Part shown: positions 37 through 440 of the stretch, piece after piece
How positions within the stretch are numbered: position 1 is the stretch's first letter
Layout: every line of letters begins with the position of its first letter
Source: Escherichia coli
GTDB taxonomy: Bacteria; Pseudomonadota; Gammaproteobacteria; Enterobacterales; Enterobacteriaceae
Strand: one strand, 5' to 3'
Length of the DNA: 440 bases
Assembly: GCF_003334385.1 (NCBI RefSeq)
Contig: NZ_QOWN01000182.1
Notes under the pieces: generated by a model
What the model saw: only the letters and a program-made list of their open reading frames with translations
Databases searched by the model: none
Told to the model about the DNA's origin: nothing
Translations under genes and position numbers: made by a program

Positions 37-440
37 ATGACATTTAAACACTACGATGTGGTCAGGGCGGCGTCGCCGTCAGACCTTGCGGAGCGACTGA
101 CACAAAAACTGAAGGAGGGGTGGCAGCCATTTGGCAGCCCTGTCGCCATCACGCCTTATACCCTGATGCAGGCCATTGCGGCGGAAGGTGATGTCACCAC
201 ACCTGTGGTGGTGAAGCCGTCGGATGGAGAAGGCACAGTTATCAGCACCACCAGCGAACCGGAGTATTACTTTGTTGTTGTTCTGGCGGGGCAGTCAAAC
301 TCAATGTCTTTTGGTGAAGGGCTGCCGCTGCCGGAGACATATGACCGTCCGGACCCGCGTATTAAACAGCTGGCGCGTCGCAGTACGGTGACGCCGGGTG
401 GTGCCGCCTGTAAATATAACGACATCATTCCGGCAGACCA
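37..440 (+). CDS. Prophage-type sialate (9-O-acetyl-neuraminate) O-acetylesterase, NanS-p-like; 5' portion only (DUF1737-like N-terminal module plus start of SGNH/SASA esterase domain), 3' end outside window
   Basis: Seen in sequence: frame +1 is open from ATG 37 to the window edge (134 codons), an in-frame TGA at 4-6 closes it upstream, and no ATG/GTG/TTG lies in frame between 7 and 36, so ATG 37 is the only possible start. Strong SD 4 nt upstream. Product call rests on recognition of the N-terminal sequence and the LAGQSNSMSFG block typical of sialate O-acetylesterase family SGNH hydrolases; this is recall, not a database hit. Confidence 0.75.
   Translation, partial: MTFKHYDVVRAASPSDLAERLTQKLKEGWQPFGSPVAITPYTLMQAIAAEGDVTTPVVVKPSDGEGTVISTTSEPEYYFVVVLAGQSNSMSFGEGLPLPETYDRPDPRIKQLARRSTVTPGGAACKYNDIIPAD
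248..255 (-). other. Chi octamer (5'-GCTGGTGG-3' on the minus strand; CCACCAGC on the plus strand)
   Basis: Seen in sequence: exact 8/8 match to the E. coli RecBCD Chi sequence on the minus strand. It only acts as a recombination hotspot in a host whose RecBCD recognises this octamer, and host identity is inferred, not shown. Confidence 0.45.

Follow-up and report, generated by a model that had tools for sequence, protein, structure and literature searches.

The peptide LAGQSNSMSFG, encoded in a short stretch of Escherichia coli DNA, contains a four-residue block, GQSN, that raises the question of whether its serine is the nucleophile of an esterase and, if so, which enzyme it serves and on what substrate. 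We analysed the whole 440-nt stretch (hereafter, the window), in which one long open reading frame runs on the + strand from an ATG at 37–39 and is still open at the 3′ end; the other frames of the window hold no open reading frame of more than 55 aa. A Shine–Dalgarno-like GGGAGG can be read at 27–32 (+), 4 nt upstream of this start codon, which is also the RefSeq CDS start. Translation of 37–438 (+) gives MTFKHYDVV...YYFVVVLAGQSNSMSFGEGLPLPE....

The window matches E. coli NCTC9112 (NZ_LR134079.1) at 100% identity; there it corresponds to positions 6001–6440 of the surrounding locus, L001. The coding sequence annotated there (L001 6037–8016) has the same start and the RefSeq product name ‘SASA family carbohydrate esterase’ (659 aa). 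Translation, the 100% match and Pfam thus place codons 1–134, plus the first part of codon 135, of a 659-codon gene at 37–440 (+). Pfam assigned the full protein a DUF1737 domain (residues 3–50), a SASA domain (81–276; a partial match to model positions 5–157 of 226, E = 2.8e-9) and a DUF6645 domain (508–616). [quoted passage not shown] On the strength of the RefSeq name, the prophage location, the Pfam domains and the matches to 3PT5 and 6YP6, the gene is nanS-p: the window comprises the first 440 bases of this sialate O-acetylesterase gene of a lambdoid prophage in E. coli.

nanS-p genes have been described for both Stx and non-Stx prophages, located between Q and the lysis genes (PMC8065619). 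The order in L001 is Q (4185–4580), nanS-p (6037–8016), holin (8752–8958) and lysozyme (8963–9496), and the same Q–nanS-p–lysis gene order is seen in PhiR5_1 and phi24B. No stx genes and no tRNA genes were found upstream of nanS-p in the Q–nanS-p spacer (L001 4580–6036). This 1.4-kb spacer carries nine terminator-like hairpins on the + strand, against 1.7 expected, with an identical hairpin, AGCCCCTCTCCGGAGGGGCT, at L001 5312 and 5799. Rfam searches of the spacer returned two strong copies of the small RNA STnc100 (5137–5342, 141 bits; 5620–5829, 166 bits) and a weak third match, below threshold, at 5381–5554 (30 bits). On the minus strand at L001 5832–5884, some 150 nt before the start codon, one site resembles both AsxR (56.5 bits against a gathering score of 63) and AgvB (37 bits against 56); both matches are sub-threshold, and the site may be a diverged prophage anti-sRNA.

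Annotation of the gene is uneven. In phage PhiR5_1 (PV340545), the 99%-identical gene is entered as a ‘hypothetical protein’; several RefSeq copies bear just the name ‘DUF6645/DUF1737 domain-containing protein’, and the PHROGs family, phrog_143, is labelled ‘unknown function’. Searching NCBIfam with the protein returned no family; it has no model for this characterised family.

Within the frame, the block is encoded at 289–300 (+), with G85 at 289–291 (ggg), Q86 at 292–294 (cag), S87 at 295–297 (tca) and N88 at 298–300 (aac). A preliminary description of the window had read it as GQSN within LAGQSNSMSFG, with Ser87 (tca, 295–297) as putative nucleophile, and translation from the RefSeq start finds its coordinates, peptide and numbering all correct. 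Pairwise alignment to native K-12 NanS (55% identity over 316 aa) pairs A84, G85, Q86, S87 and N88 with A16, G17, Q18, S19 and N20, and H373 with His301, so that the catalytic serine of a characterised sialate O-acetylesterase falls on Ser87 and not elsewhere. Ser19 and His301 have been named as the catalytically active residues of NanS, in which the catalytic Asp is missing and Gln18 lies in the oxyanion hole (PMC9063846); according to a review, mutagenesis confirmed the Ser and the His. The alignment thus upholds the putative role given to Ser87, supplies its partner, His373, and equates Gln86 (292–294, +) with the residue whose side chain serves the oxyanion hole in NanS. The preliminary description had named neither the known prophage enzyme NanS-p, nor a Ser–His pair without Asp, nor the functional role of the Gln in GQSN.

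Two further serines lie close by in the peptide, S89 and S91. Both are Ala in NanS and neither is conserved, which rules them out as the nucleophile and leaves Ser87 as the only candidate, and the only conserved, serine of block I.

It had also been proposed that the SASA type has GQSN in place of the classical GDS, and published comparisons agree. A table of block I sequences gives ‘17 GQSNA 21’ for 3PT5, ‘29 GQSNM 33’ for 2APJ and ‘9 GQSNM 13’ for 1ZMB (PMC10792757), CE20 esterases carry their serine within a GQSNM block I whose Gln helps to form the oxyanion hole, and a paper on NanS-p diversity found that NanS-p sequences have the NanS variants of all four SGNH blocks. We cite the results of Rangarajan 2011, Rangel 2016, Saile 2016 and Feuerbaum 2018 second-hand, via PMC9063846, PMC10017367, PMC8065619 and PMC10792757.

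Our own survey points the same way. With the esterase domain as query, a search of 1.84 billion cluster representatives gave 373 matches at E ≤ 0.001. Among the listed matches that cover the motif, GQSN was present in 99 of 103 distant representatives (from 50%-identity clusters), some only 26–30% identical to the query; taken singly, the serine and the glutamine were each kept in 100 of the same 103. All 111 close clusters covering the motif (of 120 close clusters) had GQSN, and H373 was found in 33 of the 34 listed homologues that extend that far. Gly189 of block II, W245-x-Q247-G248-E249-x-D251 of block III and H373-F374 were the other strongly conserved positions. Between alleles the codons of the motif vary synonymously (GGG or GGT for G; TCA, TCC or TCT for S; AAC or AAT for N), a pattern that points to selection on the protein and is what purifying selection would be expected to leave. 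The GQSN motif is conserved far beyond chance. Translation, the NanS alignment, this conservation and the published block table together make G85-Q86-S87-N88 (289–300, +) an SGNH block I of the SASA/type II form.

We predicted the structure of the protein with AlphaFold2 from a 41-sequence alignment (mean pLDDT 85.2); all structural statements here refer to this predicted, not experimental, model. The N-terminal DUF1737 domain (residues 3–51; 43–189, +; Pfam PF08410 E = 2.3e-15 over residues 3–50) is modelled as a small alpha/beta domain comprising a strand (3–11), a helix (14–26) and three further strands (29–31, 36–38 and 42–51). It is followed by an interdomain linker, residues 52–72 (190–252, +; more loosely, residues 51–73 at about 187–255), which is probably disordered, with pLDDT below 50 at 51–61 and 64–72, and was also aligned with that of gp84, the NanS-p of phi24B. 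Order and homology to NanS resume from about residues 73–75, and the first esterase strand spans residues 77–85 (YYFVVVLAG; 265–291, +), aligned to NanS 9–17 and leading into block I. The onset of the catalytic domain at about residue 77, as first suggested, therefore agrees with homology from residues 74–75, predicted disorder over 51–72 and the first strand at 77–85.

Confidence in the esterase domain is high, with block means of pLDDT mostly above 90 over residues 81–390 and a mean of 97 for residues 81–90. The strand at 77–85 is followed by a short helix at 87–89, and Ser87 is therefore placed at the strand-to-helix turn. In E. coli NanS and the betacoronavirus HEs, the nucleophilic serine has the same position in common, where it opens a helix that follows the first β-strand (PMC9063846). 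Foldseek searches with the model gave 3PT5 as the top match (E = 1.9e-41, TM(target) 0.96, rmsd 1.3 Å over 322 columns), followed by 6YP6 (TM 0.90); 1ZMB was also matched (TM 0.64, 16% identity). Beyond a second low-confidence linker (399–440) lies a beta-sandwich (443–653). These residues (L001 7363–7995) resemble the sialic-acid-binding lectin domain of Vibrio cholerae sialidase (2W68), which is consistent with a sialoglycan-binding module. NanS-p is thus a protein of three domains: DUF1737, putatively capsid-binding, then an esterase of SGNH type II (SASA), and at the C terminus a lectin-like jelly roll. The domain boundaries of the model agree with those given by Pfam and the 6YP6 match.

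Identity, homology, conservation, predicted fold and genomic context, taken as a whole explanation, leave us highly confident that Ser87 is the esterase nucleophile of a prophage NanS-p. Its GQSN holds an ordinary block I catalytic serine: both the motif and what it does have already been published, as has the gene family, and the gene is named in RefSeq.

The allele itself is a rarer one. The window matched, at ≥80% coverage, 993 of 5,426 complete E. coli genomes, at a median of five places per matching genome, and 339 phage records, mostly Stx-converting phages; the full-length allele was present in only 36 of the 5,426. Residues 1–134, those encoded in the window, are 93–96% identical to a Stx1a-phage allele, against 74% for residues 135–250, 61% for 251–396, 20% for the linker and 46% for the lectin domain. 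High identity up to residue 134 and low identity in the rest mark the gene as a mosaic. Compared with abundant NanS-p clusters, the esterase core is about 71–74% identical. Block II, GRGDSGF, lies outside the window at L001 6598–6618 (residues 188–194) and has Asp190 where NanS has Gly122. The divergent core, the rarity of the allele and Asp190 weigh against the assignment, Asp190 only weakly, since position 190 varies in the family and Gly189 is retained.

We infer catalysis by this allele, its substrate and its mechanistic steps by analogy with the characterised enzymes. His373, which lies outside the window, would deprotonate Ser87 as in E. coli NanS, and the activated serine would then attack the carbonyl of the acetyl ester. 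The tetrahedral oxyanion would be held by the Gln86 side chain together with backbone NH groups of block I and block II (the Gly189 region), and the resulting acetyl-enzyme would be hydrolysed by water. Block V reads R370-K371-T372-H373-F374, with Arg370 and not Asp three residues before the histidine (R-K-T-H); the site is therefore a predicted Ser–His pair and not a classical triad. The pair might be backed by a remote carboxylate acting through water, as has been proposed as a possible support of the Ser–His pair in NanS (PMC9063846). By the same analogy, the substrate is likely to be sialic acid O-acetylated at position 9 (and at 7/8), whether free or carried by mucin glycans. Recombinant NanS-p alleles of EDL933 and O104:H4 were active esterases (reviewed in PMC8065619).

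Three other readings of the locus bear on whether, and on what, Ser87 acts. The allele could be an inactive or binding-only pseudoenzyme owing to Asp190 in block II, MQGEKD in block III and RKTH in block V. Such variants are indeed rare: GRGDSGF was found in 4–5 of 120 close clusters and, among distant representatives, in 3 of 104; MQGEKD and RKTHF occur in 4 of 120 and 2 of 118 close clusters, respectively. Yet S87, Q86, G189, Q247-G248-E249, D251 and H373, that is, every residue with an assigned catalytic role, are kept, and the positions that differ vary across the whole family, which is why we do not read the variants of blocks II, III and V as inactivation. In block II (R188-G189-D190-S191-G192-F193), Gly189 is kept in 95 of 104 homologues and position 190 is Gly in 78 of 104, so Asp190 is unlikely to be the sign of a dead enzyme, the variable position being 190 and the conserved residue the retained Gly189. 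Block III (M246-Q247-G248-E249-K250-D251) retains G248 and E249, which are invariant in the homologue alignment. The open reading frame is intact, moreover, and is kept at ≥96.5% identity in 31 complete genomes, and we regard a pseudoenzyme as extremely improbable. A catalytic Ser87 might instead have a true substrate other than host sialic acid, with a virion esterase deacetylating bacterial O-antigen or capsule, or acting on mucus to serve the phage particle and not the lysogen. This possibility has been raised before (PMC8065619), and it gains from the finding that phi24B gp84 sits on the capsid via DUF1737 (bioRxiv 10.64898/2026.04.10.717836) and from the divergent esterase core and lectin domain of the present allele. 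Against it, the NanS-p alleles examined to date cleave both Neu5,9Ac2 and the O-acetyl sialic acids of mucin and support growth on Neu5,9Ac2 (PMC8065619); the closest structural match of our protein is NanS, and its C-terminal domain is like the V. cholerae sialidase lectin (2W68). We therefore think a substrate other than host sialic acid unlikely.

The remaining reading keeps Ser87 as the esterase nucleophile and gives it a second task: the Ser87–His373 site might also drive self-processing of NanS-p/gp84, so that the esterase comes away both from DUF1737, bound to the capsid, and from the lectin domain. Promiscuity is found in some SGNH hydrolases, such as E. coli TAP (thioesterase I/protease I), and speaks for the idea. 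In phi24B, DUF1737 of gp84 is reported to decorate the T=9 capsid, attaching to its central hexons as a hexamer; gp84 is processed after phage release, possibly beside ‘SISSP’ after Gly54, and both autoproteolysis of the purified protein and post-release processing in virions were reported without a mechanism (bioRxiv 10.64898/2026.04.10.717836). Our allele shares residues 1–33 with gp84, after which the sequences differ. The loop bearing the Tyr ‘tooth’ (Tyr42 of gp84; probably Tyr41 here) is three residues shorter (TP-YTLMQ versus TAGYGAEFIQ), and the linker reads EGDVTTP where gp84 has EGSISSP, the proposed processing site. A second ‘SSP’ motif, in the esterase–lectin linker, is absent from the allele in the gp84 alignment, with VSPGTPD in its place. 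The alleles thus do not share the proposed cleavage motifs, which weighs against Ser87-driven processing, as does the fact that contaminating proteases or spontaneous hydrolysis of the linker could explain the cleavage; we consider a role of Ser87 in self-processing very unlikely. Were it true, one serine would control both catalysis and detachment of the enzyme from the virion after phage release, and an allele with different linker motifs is a natural test case for the idea.

The reading that we prefer, Ser87 as the nucleophile of a prophage sialate O-acetylesterase, matters because, with NanS-p esterases, enterohaemorrhagic and other lysogens of E. coli, and possibly phage particles too, can strip mucin sialic acids of their O-acetyl groups. 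With the catalytic serine located, S87A is the obvious knock-out mutation; otherwise the result is routine annotation. What is mildly new is that the allele is mosaic, rarer and unusual in its block II, and that its N-terminal domain was recently reported as a capsid-decorating module.

Among known systems, E. coli NanS (3PT5) shares with this protein the SGNH type II fold, the AGQSN block I, the catalytic Ser, Gln and His, and the lack of an Asp before the His. It differs in being a single-domain, chromosomal protein of the nanCMS operon, whereas the prophage protein adds DUF1737, a linker and a lectin domain, and in its block II (120 RGGSAF 125), with Gly122 where the allele has Asp190. The NanS-p proteins of Stx phages (z1466 of 933W; vb_24B_21/gp84 of phi24B, with 6YP6) have in common with it the three-domain architecture, a gene lying after Q and ahead of the lysis genes, and a GQSN at residues 85–88. 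Identity to phi24B gp84 is only 59% overall: 67% in the second half of DUF1737 and 9% in the linker, both of another type than in gp84, 61–74% in the esterase beyond residue 135 and 46% in the lectin domain. The prophage of this allele also differs from Stx phages in having neither stx genes nor upstream tRNA genes.

More distant relatives in the SASA family (PF03629), namely CE20, the eukaryotic sialate O-acetylesterase, 1ZMB and 2APJ, share the serine of GQSN(M), the oxyanion Gln and a QGExD block III, but 2APJ and 1ZMB retain a D-x-x-H block V (PMC10792757). In a phmmer search of the PDB at E up to 10, both were matched marginally and around block III only, and their block I was therefore compared through the published table (PMC10792757). 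With the classical GDSL/SGNH type I enzymes, such as the P. vulgatus sialate acetylesterase and rhamnogalacturonan acetylesterase, the likeness is confined to a block I Ser after the first strand, at the start of a helix, and a His base (PMC9063846). Those enzymes have GDS or GNS, a block III oxyanion Asn and a DxxH triad, whereas NanS-p here has Gln86 in place of the Asn and no Asp. With GQS in block I, QGEKD in block III and RKTH in block V, we rejected membership of type I; the protein belongs to the SGNH type II/SASA branch.
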